This document shows, in pieces, positions 1,911 to 12,266 of a stretch of DNA of 32,999 nt (position 1 is its first letter; each line of letters opens with the position of its first letter). The notes under the pieces are model-generated. The model had not been told where the DNA came from. It worked only from the letters and a program-made list of their open reading frames with translations, and ran no database searches. The DNA comes from Folioceros fuciformis. Its lineage: Eukaryota. The DNA lies in the NCBI GenBank assembly GCA_049999805.1, contig JBNGIO010005789.1, positions 41,443 through 74,441 of the forward strand, read 5' to 3'. The position numbers were made by a program, and so were the translations under genes.

Positions 1911-3218
1911 CAAGACTGATCTCACTCCTAACTCTCATTTACACTCACCTCCTGAATTTGCGACGCACAATCTAAGCTATTGAAGATTCCAAACGTTAAA
2001 GTAAGTCAAAAAACTAATTTTAAGGTTCACTTAAAATTTATGAAACAAAAAGAAAAGAATGCTGAAGTAGATTTCGGGCTAAACTAAGCCTTATTGGGTT
2101 CCATGTCTATGTACCTATGTCATTCTACAACTAGATGTTGAGAGCATCATACCTTCACATGTTGAAGGCTGTGGTGTCGCTGTAAGGGTAAAACCTTACT
2201 GACCTGCATGCATGCGCTGCATGCCTCTCATGCACCGCTCCTTGCTTCGTATGCCTTTCTAACTGATAAGCGTTTGTTTCGTCTTCTAAGAGCCTGTTTT
2301 TTTCCTTTTCCCACGAAGAGAAAGGTTGTCTCATACCCCCCCACGACGATATCTGCGGCGGTTCTGGCAGAAAAAGATGCCGACATGGTCAGAGATTTGA
2401 CTATACATGCCCTTTCGGCATTATTTACGGAGTTTTCCAAGCAGCGCATGGGGAAGGGAGGACGTCTTACAAACAGAAAAGCCTCATGGAGGTTGGTAAG
2501 AATGGGGTGAAAACCAACCGCCTCGTCCCAGACTTCTTGGAGAGCTTCGTACACATACTCCAAGAATTTGGTAACCTCTCCCAAGGACCTGCGCCTTCTT
2601 CTATGCCATAGTCGCTTCACAGATGGTCCATTCCTTGAAAGAAGAGACAAAAACTATGAGACAGGAGCCACAGCCATACTGTGAAACGGAGATATGGATG
2701 CTCTGAACATTCAATCCCTCTGCCATCGCGCTGGACCAAGAGCACGGAAAACTCCAGCCCTGAAGCCCTGGACATAATCAACACCAGGGCGGCAACCAAT
2801 TGCCACCCGTGGCAGGGTAGGCGCGCCTGCAAGAAGTAGCGGAGCTCCGAGAGGGACCTGCCAGCGGCAAGGAGGCAGCGGGTAAGTATATTGTGGGACG
2901 AAATGGAGGGCCTTCCGTCGTACATGAAGAGATGTAGATCGCAAACAAAGAGAAGAGAACAACGCAGAAGAGAGCCAAAATCCGGGGCCTGCACCGGTGC
3001 CCTAACTACTCATCTCCAAACACCCGGCACATCCCAGCGAGTCCACACCAGGCAGAGGCAGCTTCTGTGTTGCATTGAAGATGAGAGTTGCCAGGATTAG
3101 CGTTAGCCGTCCCTGTCCATGTCTCAGTTTGGGTAGGAACGGAACAGAACGGGCCGGACTTGTCCACTTCTCAGTGAGCGTATTCACCCGAGGGGTACTC
3201 GCAACAATTGATTTTGTT

Positions 3219-6200
3219 TCACGGTCGCCCCTTACAACTGCAGCACCCAGCTGTGAATCGGTGTACACGGTACCCATCCCTTACAACAATGTCTCTGTCT
3301 TCAACCCTGGACATGATCTCCGTGGAACTGTGGCAGTCACTGCACATGCGGAGATTCTTCGTTACCACCAGAGGTGTCCCATTCGGAGTGTTTAAGAGAC
3401 CGAACGCTAAAGCTAGCTTCTCAGCATGCCCACAAAGCACATCTTCCTTCTCCGTCTCACACAGTGGCTTCAACACCAAGTTGGTGTGAGGTACGTGGCC
3501 TCCTTCGTGCTTCATACGTGCATTCGTGCTCTCTACCTTCAGCGCAATGTCCATTCTCCTTTCTCCCACCAGGAATCTGTGAACCTCCATATTCACCTCA
3601 ATGGTCGCCACTGCAGGTTTCTTTTTAGCTCCAGCTTTTTTTCTCTGTGTTTCGATTCTGTCGACATCGGTCCACCTACCTGCATCCGCGTAGGTATTGG
3701 CCAAGAGCACATAGGCAGACGCCATGTGAGGGTCCAGCCTAACAATGCTTTCGAAACACCACACAGCCCTCTCTACATCCCCGTAACTTTTGCAGGCATG
3801 CAACAGAGATATCAAGCCCACAACATCACTTTGGCCCTCACAAGATAATAGCATCTTCTCTGCCTCAACTAGATGGCCAGCACGACCAAGAAGATCAATC
3901 ATGCAGGTGTAATGTTCAATAGTAGGTTTGATGCCATGCTGTTCAGCCATGGAATCAAAGTATTTGCGACCCTGGTGGACCAGTCCTTCATGACTGCAAG
4001 CTGCTAGAAGGCAGGTAAAAGTAGCATCGTTAGGCTGAACACCGGCAACCAACATCTCCTCGAAACAAGCTATTGCCTTGTGAGCTTCATCACAAGCACC
4101 ATACCCAGATATCAGGGCATTCCATGTCACCACGTCCTTCGTGACCAAGCTGTCAAAAACCTGGCGAGCATCGGCCAACGCACCACATTTCACATACATG
4201 TCCACCAGGCAGTTGCCCACCAAACCATCATCCAGCAATCCTCTTCCTACAATCTTTGAGTGCAGCTCCCTGCCCTTCTGTAAGGCACCAGTGCTTGCAC
4301 AGGAGTTGAGAAGGCAAGCAAAAGTAACATCGTTAGCCAACTCGAGGCCCAACGCCTCCATTTGTCCATACGCAACAAGCGCCTCCTGGCAGAGTCCTTG
4401 CTGCGCATACCCGGCAATCAGGGTTGTCCATGTAACCACATCCTTTGTGTTCATGCTGTCAAAAACATGGCGTGCATGTTCCAGTTTGCCACATTTTGCA
4501 TACATGTCCACCAAGCAGTTGCCCACCACACCGCTGTCCAACAGTCCTCTATCCACAATCTGCAAGTGCAGTTGCATACCCTGCTGTAAGGCACCAGTGC
4601 TTCCACAGGCACTCAGAAGGCAAGAGAACGTAACATGGTCAGCCAAAATAAAGCCAGCCTCCTCCATCTGTGCATACACAACAAGCGCCTCTTGGCCAAG
4701 CCCCTGCTGTGCATACCCAGCAATCAGGGCTGTCCATGTTACCACATCCTTCGCGTCCATGCTGTCAAAAACCTGGCGTGCATCTTCCAGTTTGCCACAT
4801 TTTGCATACCCAGCAATCAACGCTGTCCACGTCACCACGTTCTTTGCGTTCATGCCGTCAAAAATCTGGCGTGCATCTTCGAGTTCACCACATTTTGCAT
4901 ACATGTCCACCAGGCAGGTGCCCACCACTACATCATCCAGCACACCTCTTTCAACAATCTGGGAGTGCAGCTGCCTGCCCTTCTGCAAGGCACCACTGCT
5001 TCCACAGGCCTTCAGAAGGCAAGCAAAAGTAAACTGGTCAGCCAAAATGAGGCCCGCCTCCTCCATTTGTCCATACACAACAAGCGCCTCTCGGCCTAGC
5101 CCTTCCTGCACATACCCAGCAATCAGGGAGGTCCATGTCACCACGTCCTTTGTGGCCATGTTGGCAAAAATCTGGCGTGCAACGTCCAGCTCGCCGCATT
5201 TTATATACCCAGCAATGAGAGCATTCCATGTCACCACATTCTTGGTATTCATGCTGTCGAAAACCTGGCGCGCATCTTCCATCTTGCCACATTTTGCATA
5301 CATGTCCACCAGGCCGGTGCCAACAAATACGTTAATAGGAACGCCACTCTGCACCACATCACAGTGCATTTTTCTGCCGGATTCAAAGTCGGCAACAAAT
5401 GCACATGATTGAAGGGCAGCCACAAACAAGTGAGCATCAGGCTTCACTCCTGACCTACGCATCTCATGGTAGAGTTGTATGGCCTCCTCAGGTTTCCCAT
5501 GCTTAGCATATGAGGAGATTATGGAAGACCACATGAAGACATTTGGTTTTCTCACCCTGGTGAACACACCCATGGCCTCCTCCAGCCGACCTCCACATGC
5601 ATACATGCGCAATATATGATACGCCAAGTTTGCACTCGACTCGTACCCAAGTTTGACAGTGAGATCATGAACTCGTCGCCCCACGACCAAATCCTTTTCA
5701 GCTGTACACAGTTTTAGAACATTGCACAAAAGAGACTGAGAAACAGAAGAGGCTGTCCGCACCAGAAATTCCAAGGCTCGTACGGCCTCAGAAAGCTTTC
5801 CCTGCTGACATAACGTGCTCACAGCATTAACGACACCCATTTCCGATCCTGCATGCCTCCCAGGTTCAGGCTTATCCTGAGAGCTGAAGTCGGAAAGAGA
5901 GGCACCATGGCCCATCGGATGTGGAACTGCTGGGCTCCGTACGCTACTGCACACGGAGCCCATTTCCAAACCTGCACACCTTTCACGGTCAGGATAATCC
6001 GGGGAGCTCAACTTGGAAGGAGAGGCACCATGGCCCATCAGCATATCCAAGGAACTGAGCTGCTCATCAACCCAAGTTGGCTTAAACATGTCATTCAACC
6101 ACAGCACCTCGCCGGACCCTTTTCGCCGGAAGTCAGGAGAAAGGGAGCTCTTCTTATCCCGTCTGTTATCCCACCACATGGTAGGGTCCATAAACAAGTG

Positions 6201-6467
6201 CTGCCACAAGTGCTCCTGCTCCTTCTCCTGGCAACCACCATCGCTGGCAAGCCCGTCCCTAACCACAGACTCTCTCAGCAGTGGCAGTGCTGGGCTACTT
6301 ACCCTGCTGCACCTGGAGGCTTTGCTTGCCAGGCATCGACTCCCTAAACCGAGACTACCAGGAGCTCTTGTTACAATCCCTGTCCGCACACTAATTTGTT
6401 GAGCCCCGCCTGAAAGCCATTGACGTGCATAGAGAAGAAAAGAACCATCAGCCTTCGCTGGGGCCAT
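3219..6467 (-). CDS. PLS-class PPR protein with E1/E2 and DYW:KP (GRP-type) domain plus N-terminal PDF motif; putative organellar (U-to-C) RNA editing factor
   Basis: Intronless 1082-aa ORF. R/S/A-rich transit-like N-terminus, ~20 P/L/S/SS motifs, then E1, E2, KKKPAVATIEV (KPAxA replacing the PG box), HAEKLA, KNLRMCSDCH and terminal CCSCKGRP. Confidence 0.96.
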   Translation of the reverse strand: MAPAKADGSFLLYARQWLSGGAQQISVRTGIVTRAPGSLGLGSRCLASKASRCSRVSSPALPLLRESVVRDGLASDGGCQEKEQEHLWQHLFMDPTMWWDNRRDKKSSLSPDFRRKGSGEVLWLNDMFKPTWVDEQLSSLDMLMGHGASPSKLSSPDYPDRERCAGLEMGSVCSSVRSPAVPHPMGHGASLSDFSSQDKPEPGRHAGSEMGVVNAVSTLCQQGKLSEAVRALEFLVRTASSVSQSLLCNVLKLCTAEKDLVVGRRVHDLTVKLGYESSANLAYHILRMYACGGRLEEAMGVFTRVRKPNVFMWSSIISSYAKHGKPEEAIQLYHEMRRSGVKPDAHLFVAALQSCAFVADFESGRKMHCDVVQSGVPINVFVGTGLVDMYAKCGKMEDARQVFDSMNTKNVVTWNALIAGYIKCGELDVARQIFANMATKDVVTWTSLIAGYVQEGLGREALVVYGQMEEAGLILADQFTFACLLKACGSSGALQKGRQLHSQIVERGVLDDVVVGTCLVDMYAKCGELEDARQIFDGMNAKNVVTWTALIAGYAKCGKLEDARQVFDSMDAKDVVTWTALIAGYAQQGLGQEALVVYAQMEEAGFILADHVTFSCLLSACGSTGALQQGMQLHLQIVDRGLLDSGVVGNCLVDMYAKCGKLEHARHVFDSMNTKDVVTWTTLIAGYAQQGLCQEALVAYGQMEALGLELANDVTFACLLNSCASTGALQKGRELHSKIVGRGLLDDGLVGNCLVDMYVKCGALADARQVFDSLVTKDVVTWNALISGYGACDEAHKAIACFEEMLVAGVQPNDATFTCLLAACSHEGLVHQGRKYFDSMAEQHGIKPTIEHYTCMIDLLGRAGHLVEAEKMLLSCEGQSDVVGLISLLHACKSYGDVERAVWCFESIVRLDPHMASAYVLLANTYADAGRWTDVDRIETQRKKAGAKKKPAVATIEVNMEVHRFLVGERRMDIALKVESTNARMKHEGGHVPHTNLVLKPLCETEKEDVLCGHAEKLALAFGLLNTPNGTPLVVTKNLRMCSDCHSSTEIMSRVEDRDIVVRDGYRVHRFTAGCCSCKGRP

Positions 6468-7255
6468 CGTTCACGGGCAGCTGTCGGAATTGCATTCCCG
6501 GAAAGCAAGAGCTCCACGGTCCAACGAGTTCGACAAGCTACACACCTACCAAACGAACAAAGCAGAGAAACAATGTCACGCAACATTGGAATCAGGTGGC
6601 ATGGAGAGAAGATATAACTGAAAGTTGTCGAAATCATCCTTACCTGTTTTCTACTAACTCTGCTGCAGAGCACAGAAGCATGAGCAAGACCTGCAAACAC
6701 AACCTTCAAGCTTCCACGCCGGTATTGTGCCCTTCCTGGATTTCTCGGGAGGTGCAAGACGAAGGTCCCTTGACAGAAAACAGGTCTTTCACAAGGATCA
6801 GACTCCCATGCCTTGTCCAGTCCACAGATTCGTCCCCAAAACTCCACATCGTTGGACCCCTGCCCGAAATAGGGCTTGAGATCTTAAATTAAAGGCAGGA
6901 TCGGTCTCTTGTCCTTCAAATTTGCTGAGTATGTGATACGAGGCCACAGCATGGTTTCGCTTCCTGACGAAACCCGACACTATAACCGAAGGTCGGGCAC
7001 CTTCCTCCCCAACACTCTGTACAGTTTACCACCAGCTGGGTTCACCAGGGTCTATGATTGGGCTGCCAGGCAGTCCCCGCAGGAGCCAGTGAGAAGTTGG
7101 CATATCAGCATCGAGAGCATATGGTACCATGGCCTCCAACCAAGAGCTCTGCAAGTAACAATCTTAAGGTATGCAAGTGGTCAGTCTTCCACACACCGTG
7201 AGAGACTAGAAAATTGACGTGCAATGACATGCAAGCGCCAGTGTATATGACCAGA

Positions 7256-7286: not shown

Positions 7287-7836
7287 GCGCGAATGCAAAT
7301 GCACATGAGGAGGGAAGGAGGAAAGTGCTGCGCAGCTGCGCCCAGACCTTCGATCCCGACGCCTGACTCTTCACGACTCGAATCGGGTGCGCACAATCTG
7401 AAGAGTGGGCCCTCGGATTCTTCCCTGGCGGTAGCGATCTCATGCCGTTCCTTCGTGCGGGGGGACGAATTTGCGCAGAAGTTTGGGCAGGAGCGGAGTG
7501 GGCAGGTTGGATTACATTTTTTTCCGTGTTGCTGGAATTGGCAGAGTTCCCGGGGCTGTGTCTCATCCGAAGCGCAGGCCGGCGGGAGGACTGCGTGCGG
7601 ATGACGGGGGGATGTAGGCAGGAGAAGTGGATGCGTTCCCAAGGCGGATCTGGATCGCTGCTCTTACGCTGGGACTTCCTGCAACCTTCCCCCTAGCTGC
7701 GGGCTTGGCTTGAGTTCTGGCTTGAGTGGTGGATCAGGGATCCGGGGGAAGGGGGCGGTAGAGGGGCTGTGTTCGGGCGGGGATTGATTTTTGAGAGGTC
7801 GGTGCAAAGGATTCCGTTGTTTGGGAGCAGGGAGTC

Positions 7837-9418
7837 ATGGAGGCAGGTGCTGGTTACGAGGAGGTTCCCGAGACCGAGATGGTTGCTGCAGACACGGATC
7901 CGCTTGTCAGACCGGAGAGGCCTCGTCGTCACCAGTCAGTTTTCCCTGGAGCCGTCAAGACGATGTCTTACAGATTTGACGGGCATGGGAAGTTCACCAA
8001 GCTGGACTGGGACCTGAGTAGGGAGTGGGAAGGGGGTGATCTGGGGTTTAGTTGGTTCCATGTGGAGCTGCCGAGGTCTATTAAGAATCCGGCCGTGGCG
8101 GCACAGTATCTGATTGATGTGCTGTGTCCGCCGTTGAAGTTGCAGGATATTTTGGCCATGGTGAGCACTGGGCCGTTCTGTGGGCCTGTGGATGGGGCGT
8201 TGATGTTTAGGGTGAACTCTGCGGGTCCGCCCGGTAGTAAGTTTACTCAGAAGATTGCTGCCCGTGTCACTAAAGATACAGTCATCACGGTGTCGTTAGG
8301 TAGGATTCCCAGACTGGAGTTCTTGAGTAACCCCACTCAATCGCTGCTTACGGAGATCCCCAGTGTGGAGCCACCTTCTGGGCGGGCGGACAGGTACTTG
8401 GCTTCTCAGTCTTCGTTCCGAGGGAGGAACTTGAAGGATTACCCGGAGAGTATAGTGATTCAGGAGCATGTGTTGGAGTTTTTGTTGACCATGAATCATC
8501 CCGATGATCTGGAAAATCAGATTCCAACTGATGTGCCCAAGCTGATCATCCACATTGTGGACACGCACATCGACCAGCTTCAGGATATTGTTATCAGATT
8601 GGAGGCGGAATTGGATGTTGTTGAGAATGAGATGGACTCAAGTAAGCTGGTGTGAGTGTTTTGTTTGTGTGAGACAATACCGACTGCTTTGTCGAACCGC
8701 AGGCTGATGATTGATTCTGTACTGCCAGGTGGTTACGGAGTCAAGAAACAGATGCTTGACGAAAGGCGGTTCCCTCAAATGCATCTGGATTTGCAGCGGC
8801 TTCTCCAGGTGATTGCTCATGGGGAACAGGTTTTCCCACGAGTCAAGGACAAGTGGGGACGTTCAGAAAAGTGGACTGCGGTAGATGATGTCGCTGCCCT
8901 TGAAGCACTCGTGGGACGGCTCAGGAAGCTGAAAGAGAACGTTGGTTTCATAGCCAGTCGTGTTACTGCTATTCAGGCTGGGCTGACGTCTTGGCAGTCT
9001 GAGCAAATCAACCGCAAGCTCTACTATCTGTCGTTCCTCTCCATGATATTTCTGCCCCTGTCCATCGTCACTGGAGGTAGGTCTCAACTCAGGAACACGT
9101 CCTTGCTACTAGCCGAGGGTTGGGGACTCTACTAACTCTGGCTTGTGTTCAGCTTTTGGCATGAATGTGGGAGGGATTCCATGGACAGAGCAGAAGAACC
9201 CGGCCTTGAGAGACGGCTTTCTCAACGTCATTTTAATATGCTCAGCCATCTTGGGCCTGCTCCTCTTGTGCTTTTGTGCCGGACCTGTTGTCTCCTTCCT
9301 TTCCACAGGGCGCAAGAAAGCCGCTGCCAGCAAGCTGTGGCAGAGTACCAAGCGCACCATGTCTATCAGCAGGAGGAAAGGTGCTCTACACTCCAACAGG
9401 ATACACGACTCTCCCTAG
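7837..9418 (+). CDS. CorA/ZntB-like Mg2+/Zn2+ transporter; exons 7837-8641, 8729-9076, 9153-9418
   Basis: Frame is preserved across two GT-AG introns (87 and 76 nt). C-terminal ...IFLPLSIVTG/AFGMNVGGIPW carries the CorA GMN signature and two TM helices. Confidence 0.92.
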
Positions 9419-10150
9419 AGTGTGGTGGGAGTGTTGCATGGACAGGGAGCGCCACGCCACCTCACCCATCAACATCAACCTGTGCCCGCCTTTTTCAGGG
9501 CTTTGTCCTCCAATCAATCCCTTGCGATTCTTTCTCCTCCAGTCAGCCACCTGCGATTCTTTCTCCTGCAATCGACCGTCGGCCAGTTGGCCTCACCTGA
9601 TGAACTAGGCCCCGTGCTTGATTCCGTCTGGTCATGGTAATAATTTTTACTCTTGCGTAAGATGCAGCCCCAACTGGTACTTCCGATCGGAATCTGCAAG
9701 GCCGCTGAAGCACGCTTCTCTCATCATCTCATGACCATCATGCACTGTCTGACAATGGAAATGAGACGCGTGCTTATGAGACGATTTGTTACTAGTAGAT
9801 TGAGTCGGGCTCATCAGATGTCTCTCATGTACGTGGAGTCCCAGACTGGATCTCGATATAATTCCATGAGCGGGGCGGATAAGGGCCTGGCCAGCCTCAC
9901 CCAAATGAAGATTCTTGGGACGCTTCCGGCGGGTGTAGCGACAGCCCGATTGCCATCTAAGCGGGATGGGCCGCGATGAAGCCGACGCGGTGGCGACAGT
10001 GCCAATTTGCCCTGCCTTGTTTTCTCAAGTGCAAATTTTTTGTCTCACTCGCCTTGTTTGAAGGATTGGATTTTTGTAGTGATGGTAATTCTCAAGGCTT
10101 GCTCTAGGATTGCTGCCAGCGTTGCAGATCGGGGGTTGGAGCACAATCAC

Positions 10151-12266
10151 ATGGGCCTGGGCCTGCTGTCCACGTCTCCCCAGCTCGCGATAGCCCGCAG
10201 CCTGGTCCTTCAGAGGGGACATTATGGGGATGTGAGAAGGCTCAGCTGCAGCAGAAGCAGAGGCGGAATCAGCAGAAGCAGGCATGCAGTTGTGTGTGAA
10301 TTCTGTGTTTTGCTGCCCAGACCCCGACCCAGGAGAAGATGTTCCGTTTCCGTTCCAGCCCACCAGTTTGTGGGTCGCGCGGGGAGGATCTGCAAGAGGA
10401 AGTACGGGCTTGGTGTGGTTTCTTTTGCCGCATTGTCGTCGTTTGCAAGTGGAGAGGAGGGAGAGACGGCCGGTCAGGGTTTAGAGGATGTGGTGGAGGA
10501 TTTTGAGTCGATTTCCAGCGAGGAGGCCCAAGTCTTCATGCACAGTGGGAGCAGCAGTAGCAAGCTGGGAGCTGCCAGCAATGGAGCGAGCAGTGCGCAC
10601 ATGAAGATGGCAGGGGAGGCCGATGCCACTGGCGGGATGCAAGGGATGGCGGAAGCCTTCAATATTTCGTCACGCACGGCAGTGGGGATCACTGGGAGCA
10701 TAGCGGTGGCAGCGTTTGTGGTGCCCATTTTCCTGCAGTCGTCGGCTGCTGGGTTGACGCTCAAGACTCGGGTCCTGTCGTACGCCACGCTGCTGTTTGG
10801 GTTCTACATGGCTTGGAACATAGGAGCGAACGATGTGGCGAATGCAATGGGGACATCGGTGGGTTCTGGTGCACTCACGCTGCGCCAGGCAGTGCTCACG
10901 GCCGCAGTACTGGAATTTTCTGGAGCCTTCTTGGTTGGATCGCATGTCAGTCATACAATGCAGAGTGGGATCTTGGTTGCTGATGTGTTCAAGGGACGAG
11001 ATTCCATGCTGTTTTCAGGGATGCTAGCATCCCTAGCTGCTGCTGGGACGTGGCTGCAGGTATGTGTATCTCTTGCTGCCTTTTTTGGGCTGCTTCCTGC
11101 TTCCAGATCTCGGGGCTCTGACTCGCTGACGTCTTGTTGGGATGGCAGGTTGCATCGTTTTACGGATGGCCTGTGTCAACAACCCACTGTATCATTGGTG
11201 CAATGGTGGGCTTTGGGATTGTGTATGGAGGAATTGGAGCTGTTTATTGGACGTCTTTAGCCCGTGTAGTTTCGTCATGGGTTGTATCACCACTCATGGG
11301 CGCTGCAGTCTCCTTCGTCGTGTACAAATGCATCCGTGTGGTAGGATTTTCAGCTGTGAGCATATCAAAGGATTGGAAACTGATGCAAGGCCAGTTCGTT
11401 TGGTGGGCTGACCTTAATTGTGTTTCTCTTGTGATCAGTTTGTGTACAGGGCACCAAATCCAGGTCAGGCAGCAGCTAAAGCTGCTCCACTTGCCGTCTT
11501 TGTTGGTATCACAGCTCTATCGTTCACAACTCTGCATGGGTCTGGAGACCCCCTGATTGCTGTGGCCAAAGCTTTGGCCTTTGGGTTATTGGGTGCAGCT
11601 GCTATCAGCACGGTCATTAACCAGCAAGTAGGTCAGCTTCTTGGGGACTATTGTGAACTTCCTTCCCCGTCTGACGAACAGGAAAACAAAAATTTACGAC
11701 GTTTGAGCTTGAACTTGCTAGCCAAGGTTGGAGGTCCGACTGGGACTCAGTTGAGGATTGTATACAGTATATTCGGGTATTTGCAAGTTTTGTCTGCTTG
11801 CTTCATGTCATTTGCACATGGGGCAAATGATGTTGCCAACGCTATTGGACCAATCTCAGCTGCTTTGGCAATACTTCACGGCAGCAGTGGGCAGGTGGGC
11901 ATGTCAACGGAAGTGTTAGCTTGGGGTGGATTCGGTATTGTGGCCGGCTTGTTAGTTTGGGGATATCGGGTGATTGCAACAATCGGGAACAAAATCACAG
12001 AATTGACTCCGACGAGGGGATTCGCTGCAGAGTTTGCAGCTGCCACTGTGGTTGTGGTTGCTTCAAGGCTGGGGCTGCCCATTTCCGCTACACATACCTT
12101 GGTGGGCGCTGTCATGGGAGTGGGGTTTGCCAGGGGCCTCAACAGTGTTCGAGGTGAAGTGGTCAGGGAGATTGCGGCATCGTGGCTAGTCACAGTCCCA
12201 GTAGGAGCCATTCTTTCCGTGATGTATGCATCTGTTCTCGTCAGGTTGATCCCTTCCCTGGTATAG
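10151..12266 (+). CDS. PHT2;1: Plastid inorganic phosphate transporter, PiT/PHO4 family; exons 10151-11059, 11149-11340, 11439-12266 (alternative ATG at 10082)
   Basis: Two PiT signatures ([20 protein letters not shown] and [15 protein letters not shown]), PVSTTH and PISATH motifs, a long R/S-rich transit peptide, and GT-AG introns of 89 and 98 nt. Confidence 0.93.

Follow-up and report, generated by a model that had tools for sequence, protein, structure and literature searches.

The question raised by this locus is whether one gene joins two things known from separate proteins, namely the PDF motif of the plant organellar OSB proteins and a pentatricopeptide repeat (PPR) editing factor ending in a DYW:KP domain, and, if so, what the PDF would do there. 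The locus lies in a 32,999-nt stretch of Folioceros fuciformis DNA (assembly GCA_049999805.1, contig JBNGIO010005789.1, positions 41,443 to 74,441), hereafter called the window. A first-pass annotation, made from the letters alone, had placed such a fusion at 6057-6209 without naming a strand. The peptide that it described is exactly residues 87-137 of a 1082-amino acid (aa) open reading frame (ORF) on the minus strand (3219..6467), while the plus-strand translation of 6057-6209 makes no sense. In the explanation preferred here, to which a probability of about 60% is given as a whole, the gene is nuclear and intron-poor and its product would be an organelle editing factor of the PLS-PPR-E-DYW:KP layout, with a flexibly tethered accessory PDF domain that binds single-stranded nucleic acid. 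The protein would be grouped with other PLS-PPR proteins that bear one to three N-terminal PDF domains, an old subfamily still lacking a name.

The PDF motif has been described as an element of about 50 aa with a conserved Pro-Asp-Phe signature (PMC6963530; papers are cited here by PMC number, for the portions of their text that were available). This signature is found in the window protein as P111-D112-F113. When aa 79-143 was compared by phmmer with 1.84 billion representative sequences, 562 proteins were matched at E<=1e-3 (135 of them at E<=1e-10), and in many the match extended over several stretches. Among the matches were proteins named OSB1, OSB2, OSB3 and OSB4 in their source records (for instance from Populus, Amborella, Chenopodium and relatives of Arabidopsis), and some of the matched PDF proteins also carry the Pfam SSB domain. 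A profile built from non-PPR, OSB-type copies (332 PDF copies from 136 non-PPR proteins) recognized window residues 81-141 with 73.9 bits and an independent E-value of 3.4e-25, whereas the best of 1000 shuffled versions of the N-terminal 215 aa reached 5.4 bits with the same profile; the 332 copies had themselves been gathered with the window motif as query, and the family is anchored by the named OSBs that they include. All ten columns that are invariant in a 44-copy PDF alignment, of which the window copy is one row, are kept: W88, W98, D100, R102, K105, P111, D112, F113, P130 and W132. As judged from sequence comparison, aa 87-137 are truly homologous to the PDF motif of OSBs, and the OSB resemblance proposed in the first-pass annotation was borne out. 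It is the only PDF in the whole window when all six frames are considered. Other searches were less informative. Pfam gave no family at E<=1 in the N-terminal 206 aa, which indicates that the PDF is not among its models. When the peptide alone was used in word-indexed searches, three or four candidates and nothing useful came back, only the alignment query being productive, and the ESM Atlas gave no usable match.

Could the resemblance be due to chance, or to an artefact such as an OSB gene merged with a PPR gene? Merged gene models may exist among the PDF proteins. PDF copies occur in a kinesin-motor protein of Coptis chinensis (P0045, 1526 aa) and in a Striga hermonthica protein named 'interactor of constitutive active ROPs 2' (P0033, 1063 aa), both of which look merged and possibly are. 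For the window protein, the distance between 73.9 bits and the shuffled scores is against chance, the ORF is single, uninterrupted and devoid of an OB fold, and the same architecture recurs in 31 proteins and 73 metagenome loci from independent sources. Both forms of this explanation, whose probability is practically negligible, were rejected.

The window protein shares with the OSB proteins the 50-65-aa PDF and its signature, W..WWDNR..K..PDF.(H/R)K..GE.LWL..P.WV. In PMC13393729, membership of the OSB family is defined by an OB-fold/SSB-like domain together with a PDF. No Pfam SSB or OB family was detected in the 1082-aa protein, so it is PDF-containing but not an OSB. The order of domains also differs, because the single PDF of the window protein is N-terminal and is followed by PPR, E and DYW domains, while OSB PDFs lie C-terminal to the OB-like domain (PMC4166229, PMC13393729).

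The remainder of the protein has the layout of a PLS-class editing factor. Twelve stretches were matched by the Pfam PPR families (PF01535, E 5e-105), and this tandem array is followed by an E motif, the order that marks the PLS class. Pfam PF14432 (DYW_deaminase) matched aa 990-1080 with an E-value of 1.7e-32. Counted from K950, the domain has 133 aa and begins with KPAVA, with KP at the place of the PG box. HAE stands at domain positions 65-67, where the canonical triplet is HSE, position 88 is a lysine (TKNLR), the zinc ligands HxE...CxxCH are present as HAE and CSDCH, and the C-terminal triplet is GRP; three canonical comparators showed PG, HSE and DYW at the corresponding places. KP for PG, HAE for HSE and, in hornworts, a terminal GRP or DRH are the marks of DYW:KP domains (PMC9478123), and Lys88 is conserved in the 132-133-aa DYW:KP domain as it is in DYW:PG (PMC11845758). 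By its sequence, the C-terminus thus belongs to the DYW:KP subgroup, as the first-pass annotation had also called it, and within it to the GRP variant. The protein agrees with the hornwort GRP-variant PPR-DYW:KP factors of U-to-C editing on which the designer domains KP2 and KP3 are based in its PLS array, E motif, 133-aa domain, KP, HAE, Lys88 and GRP (PMC9478123, PMC11845758). It differs in its N-terminal PDF, which is not mentioned in the available text of these two papers, where the designer proteins begin with the PLS array or a tag.

The PDF appears to be a separate small domain. An AlphaFold2 model of aa 75-150, with the 44-copy alignment as input, had a mean predicted local distance difference test score (pLDDT) of 89.8 and a predicted template modelling score of 0.76, and comprised a helix, three short strands and a C-terminal helix. 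In a second model, of the N-terminal 400 aa and based on an alignment with eight other PDF-PPR proteins, aa 77-146 were predicted with confidence (block means of pLDDT 87-95), the PPR helix pairs started at aa 209 with pLDDT >90, and aa 1-76, 147-158 and 160-206 had pLDDT <50. The models thus predict for the PDF (aa ~77-146) a small autonomous fold on a disordered tether of about 60 aa. A two-copy complex prediction of the PDF scored 0.03, a value that speaks neither for nor against pairing. The linker contains an 81-nt direct repeat (5836-5916 and 5959-6039, 80% identical, 123-nt spacing), whose protein-level units agree in 15 of 29 residues and take the form of two MGHGAS...AG.EMG units, predicted to be disordered. 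Tandem Repeats Finder reported only a hexamer, at 6211-6230. The first 78 residues contain much Ser/Thr, Ala and Arg and few acidic side chains (R+K 10, D+E 4, S+T 14), and the homologues have 60-130 aa ahead of their first PDF; this N-terminus is likely an organelle targeting peptide. Composition and the 400-aa model therefore place the PDF between a presequence-like N-terminus and the first PPR, where it had been put by the earlier reading.

These data also bear on the possibility that the PDF is an untranslated or decaying relic, either because translation starts at Met144, Met146 or Met185 or because the motif is a remnant with no function. Such in-frame ATGs do exist downstream, and many related metagenome loci are interrupted. 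The frame is, however, open from Met1 through the PDF to the stop codon (1082 aa plus stop, no coding intron), an in-frame TGA at 6473-6471 lies directly upstream of the ATG at 6467 and makes Met1 the first possible start of this ORF, and homologues, too, have a presequence of comparable length before their PDF. None of the invariant PDF residues has been lost. Nine PDF-PPR proteins were aligned over their N-terminal 400 aa, and 15 of the 22 columns invariant among them belong to aa 87-133. The PDF is the best-conserved part of this region across hornwort-like, fern, lycophyte and moss proteins, and this conservation argues strongly that the motif is translated. Transcript-like contigs point the same way. 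A 926-nt contig of run X1 aligned free of mismatches to 7184..6642 and 6543..6161, so that it begins in the 5' untranslated region (5'UTR), includes the ATG and reaches 16 codons into the motif. Its joint corresponds to a 5'UTR intron, placed by the alignment at 6544-6641 with a 2-nt ambiguity and bounded by GT at 6643-6642 and AG at 6547-6546. A second X1 contig covers 5785-6091. Run X1 is not recorded as RNA; it behaves as an RNA assembly, since its contigs omit short segments, among them three segments of the neighbouring genes, one with GT..AG ends, that are absent from a 4924-nt mismatch-free contig. Of the transcript uniting motif and PPR repeats, which the first-pass annotation had asked to be confirmed, 5'UTR, ATG and motif start are joined in one contig, and the contigs listed leave 6092-6160 unbridged toward the PPR array. 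Taken together, these observations make a relic very improbable, and a downstream translation start was rejected.

The fusion is not confined to the window. At least 31 other PDF-PPR proteins were found in public sequences: 18 from Diphasiastrum complanatum, two from Selaginella, seven from ferns (Adiantum, Ceratopteris and Pteridium), one from Sphagnum compactum and three further ones. Examples are CAM6033764.1 (Sphagnum compactum), O6H91_23G059500 (Diphasiastrum complanatum), XP_024517303.1 (Selaginella), KAI5076972.1 (Adiantum) and KAH7429238.1 (Ceratopteris). Ten were present among the best 150 of the 562 phmmer matches as PPR proteins with an N-terminal PDF, and a profile of PPR-linked PDFs, which matched 683 proteins at E<=1e-3, had many PPR proteins among its best 120. 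No named seed-plant protein among the matches listed (the best 120-150 per search) was a PPR protein. All 31 have their PDFs N-terminal of the PPR array, one copy in 10 proteins, two in 14 and three in seven, and P0196 has an extra internal copy. They resemble the window protein in having a presequence, one to three PDFs and a PLS-PPR array, and their PDFs cluster with that of the window. The earlier guess that the fusion might already be present in annotations proved right in the sense that it sits, unlabelled, in entries called 'hypothetical protein' or 'pentatricopeptide repeat-containing protein'.

It is in their C-termini that these proteins differ from the window protein. Twenty-eight of the 31 end within or ahead of the E region or are incomplete, and the remaining three, P0148 (the Sphagnum protein CAM6033764.1) and P0186 and P0235 (both from Diphasiastrum), end in a canonical DYW domain with PG box, HSE and DYW. 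None of the 31 has a DYW:KP end. A scan of metagenome plant contigs with the PPR-linked PDF profile gave a similar picture. Of 200 matched stretches, 155 were confirmed and 80 loci kept (20 of the 80 ORFs duplicate others), and in 73 of the 80 the PDF was followed on its own strand by PPR repeats, at most a few tens of bases away, a count biased upward by a search pattern derived from PPR-linked PDFs. A DYW match was present at 33 loci. The 29 distinct PDF-linked DYW segments included 15 with HSEKLA and none with HAE, and the box was of the PG type wherever it was readable. The intact examples L013, L016 and L017 end in CSCMDYW, and the L013 ORF (1002 aa) can be aligned colinearly to window aa 83-1078, with 37% of the residues identical. 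In these loci the PDF lies directly against the PPR array, in contrast to the window protein with its linker of about 60 aa and internal duplication. The PPR region of loci L004-L080 is often split over several frames or stopped early; such interrupted loci could be pseudogenes, intron-containing genes or assembly errors.

These results bear directly on the first-pass annotation, whose observation and homology stood. It had held that canonical PLS-DYW factors carry no PDF, which P0148, P0186 and P0235 contradict, and it had tied the motif to DYW:KP and to mechanisms of reverse editing, a special connection that fails with 0 of 31 relatives ending in DYW:KP and no HAE in the metagenome segments. 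A KP-specific fusion was therefore rejected: canonical-DYW relatives carry the PDF, and the metagenome DYW segments are of the HSE type. Since mosses, lycophytes and ferns have PDFs on proteins whose C-termini are E-only or canonical DYW, the PDF is not a speciality of reverse editing.

The PDF-coding DNA is also multi-copy. At position 6191, within the motif, 12, 30, 38 and 12 contigs at least 90% alike from four runs have the same other letter, which points to several copies in this organism and in three related ones. In runs X2, X3 and X9, the summed depth of contigs at least 90% alike is very high over 3002-6341 (aa ~42 to the stop) and falls sharply upstream of 6342 and downstream of 3002. 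This depth over the coding sequence indicates that close paralogues form a large family in related organisms.

To what extent the fusion has a single origin was judged from a tree of 137 PDF copies and 65 columns, which is weakly resolved. PPR linkage required three changes on this tree, compared with a mean of 42 when the labels were shuffled, and the window copy fell in a 13-row, PPR-only group that includes fern copies (Shimodaira-Hasegawa-like approximate likelihood ratio test support 93). A tree in which all PPR-linked copies and one partial Sphagnum protein were held together was not rejected (approximately unbiased test, p-AU 0.966); this constrained tree scored above the quick free tree, and the group was named after the tree had been seen. 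The simplest reading of these sequence data would be one old fusion that was passed on and multiplied among the PPR proteins. Multi-copy PDF proteins were observed in green algae (P0008 from Sanguina aurantia and P0190, an MMETSP transcript), which makes the PDF domain older than land plants. No algal PDF-PPR was present among the matches listed.

The PDF domain of OSBs and the PPR-DYW editing factors are each well known, and their joined form was found without a description. No account of a PDF-PPR fusion was met in the searchable literature, where a mention in some primary papers or supplements is possible. The word OSB does not occur in the available text of a 2026 kingdom-wide survey of editing factors (PMC13386178), and PPR is never mentioned in that of a 2026 OSB survey that requires the OB fold (PMC13393729); the supplementary tables of both could list such proteins. 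The nearest analogues are the RRM-PPR and MORF/ORRM/OZ fusions, in which a generic RNA- or protein-binding module is likewise joined to an editing component (PMC13386178). They differ in that the PDF is another domain, with a reported preference for single-stranded DNA (ssDNA).

What the PDF may do can be approached from the OSBs, in which it is the element responsible for ssDNA binding and, in OSB1, is sufficient for it (PMC6963530, PMC4166229, PMC13393729); this activity is reported for OSB1 and OSB2 only, through these reviews. By analogy, the PDF of the window protein may bind nucleic acid in its PPR context and may thereby affect editing. The targeting peptide of about 78 aa would be removed, leaving a mature protein that begins with one PDF domain. 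The PPR array would recognize RNA upstream of the base to be edited, and the chemistry would fall to the DYW:KP domain. PLS-PPR arrays bind RNA with their N-terminus toward the 5' side of the target. A tethered N-terminal PDF would therefore be placed to grip, independently of sequence, the single strand 5' of the PPR footprint or nearby ssDNA, and could in this way raise local concentration and affinity. Given its occurrence with other C-termini, the PDF would be a general accessory of PPR proteins of this kind.

OSB1 and OSB2, however, prefer ssDNA over double-stranded DNA or RNA (PMC4166229). This preference and the role of the PDF as the ssDNA-binding element of OSBs (PMC6963530, PMC4166229), together with the presence of a disordered linker that would allow reach past the bound RNA, are in favour of the main rival explanation. 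In it, the PDF would attach to organellar DNA where this is single-stranded, as in transcription bubbles, R-loops or replication intermediates, and would tether the factor to the nucleoid, so that editing is co-transcriptional. This was the main idea of the first-pass annotation, which had also named an unwinding aid and action on ssDNA as possibilities. Such a tether could not explain reverse editing as such, as the fusion is not KP-specific, and the net acidic PDF envelope does not favour it either. It is considered unlikely, though deserving attention before the other alternatives. A far-reaching version is a little less probable still and must be called speculative: the PDF-PLS-PPR proteins could be an ancient class, not described so far, among the organelle editing factors of non-seed land plants, fused probably once before the bryophyte/vascular split, with the PDF as a docking factor on nucleoid ssDNA that couples editing to transcription or even lets the deaminase/aminase reach ssDNA, the fusion having been lost later in seed plants in favour of trans-acting helpers.

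The PDF might instead be a protein-protein or assembly module, a Trp-rich mini-domain that oligomerizes or brings in a partner (another editing component, for example) rather than binding nucleic acid. Its many conserved aromatic residues could form an interaction surface, one to three copies occur in tandem, and OSB2 is a tetramer (PMC6963530). Against this, ssDNA binding is the only PDF function reported in the available text of PMC6963530, PMC4166229 and PMC13393729, and no partner is known. This possibility is regarded as rather improbable. On balance, accessory single-strand binding would rank as most likely, with the nucleoid tether as its main rival, protein interaction as a lesser one and an untranslated relic as unlikely.

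Several points weigh against accessory single-strand binding and the family assignment that accompanies it. The role of the PDF in a PPR context is drawn by analogy with OSBs, and the ssDNA preference of OSB1 and OSB2 makes a contribution to RNA affinity fit less well than a DNA tether. The PDF envelope is net acidic (R+K 9 and D+E 12 of 65 residues), which is unusual for a nucleic-acid binder. Its modelled fold is without a solved structural relative: a Foldseek search of the PDB with the PDF model gave 16 matches, all with E>=3 and none at E<=1e-3, and the PDF profile found nothing significant among PDB sequences, the best being CP29 with E 0.84. Structure therefore lends binding no independent support. 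The gap at 6092-6160 between the listed contigs means that a single mRNA from PDF to PPR was not directly shown. The window protein is the only protein with both PDF and DYW:KP that was visible whole. To the upward bias of the metagenome count must be added that many of the metagenome PDF-PPR loci have interrupted frames, so that presence alone is no proof of function.

The coordinates of the gene and of its parts are collected in Table 1.

Table 1. Features of the PDF-PLS-PPR-E-DYW:KP gene and its product (positions in the window)
Feature	Positions	Strand	Evidence
Complete single-exon coding sequence, PDF-PLS-PPR-E-DYW:KP protein	3219..6467	minus	ORF list, translation, Pfam, upstream TGA
Presequence-like N-terminus, aa 1-78	6234..6467	minus	composition, pLDDT, homologues
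PDF domain, aa 79-143 (profile envelope)	6039..6233	minus	non-PPR PDF profile, AlphaFold2, conservation
S/P/G-rich flexible linker with tandem duplication, aa 144-206	5850..6038	minus	pLDDT, repeats
PLS-type PPR array, aa 207-890, ~20 helical-hairpin motifs by length	3798..5849	minus	Pfam PPR, PPR_1, PPR_2, PPR_3; model
E motif, aa 895-957	3597..3785	minus	Pfam PF20431, E 3.9e-17
DYW:KP deaminase-like domain, GRP variant, aa 950-1082, 133 aa	3222..3620	minus	Pfam PF14432, motifs
5'UTR exon	6644..7184	minus	926-nt contig of run X1; 5' end is a minimum, contig stops there
5'UTR intron, 98 nt, GT..AG	6546..6643	minus	X1 contig joint and sequence

The locus is a plant nuclear region, as its plus-strand neighbours are intron-containing genes for a CorA-like and a PHO4-type transporter. 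The CorA-like Mg2+ transporter gene was recognized by Pfam PF01544 on ORF 8707-9135 and the PHO4-type phosphate transporter gene by PF01384 on ORF 10082-11260. Both (plus strand, 7341-12000) are spanned by the 4924-nt X1 contig, which skips 8642-8728, 9075-9150 and 11056-11437. A 404-aa open frame on the plus strand (4198-5412) lies antisense to the PPR array and is most likely a by-product of its repetitive, GC-rich coding sequence.

The result corrects the idea that the PDF fusion is tied to reverse editing. If the PDF adds single-strand binding, lineages that edit very heavily would have editing factors with a helper of their own, and the PDF would be a candidate for connecting editing with the nucleoid. 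It would also offer an autonomous module of about 70 aa to try on designer PPR editors, including those of the U-to-C type.

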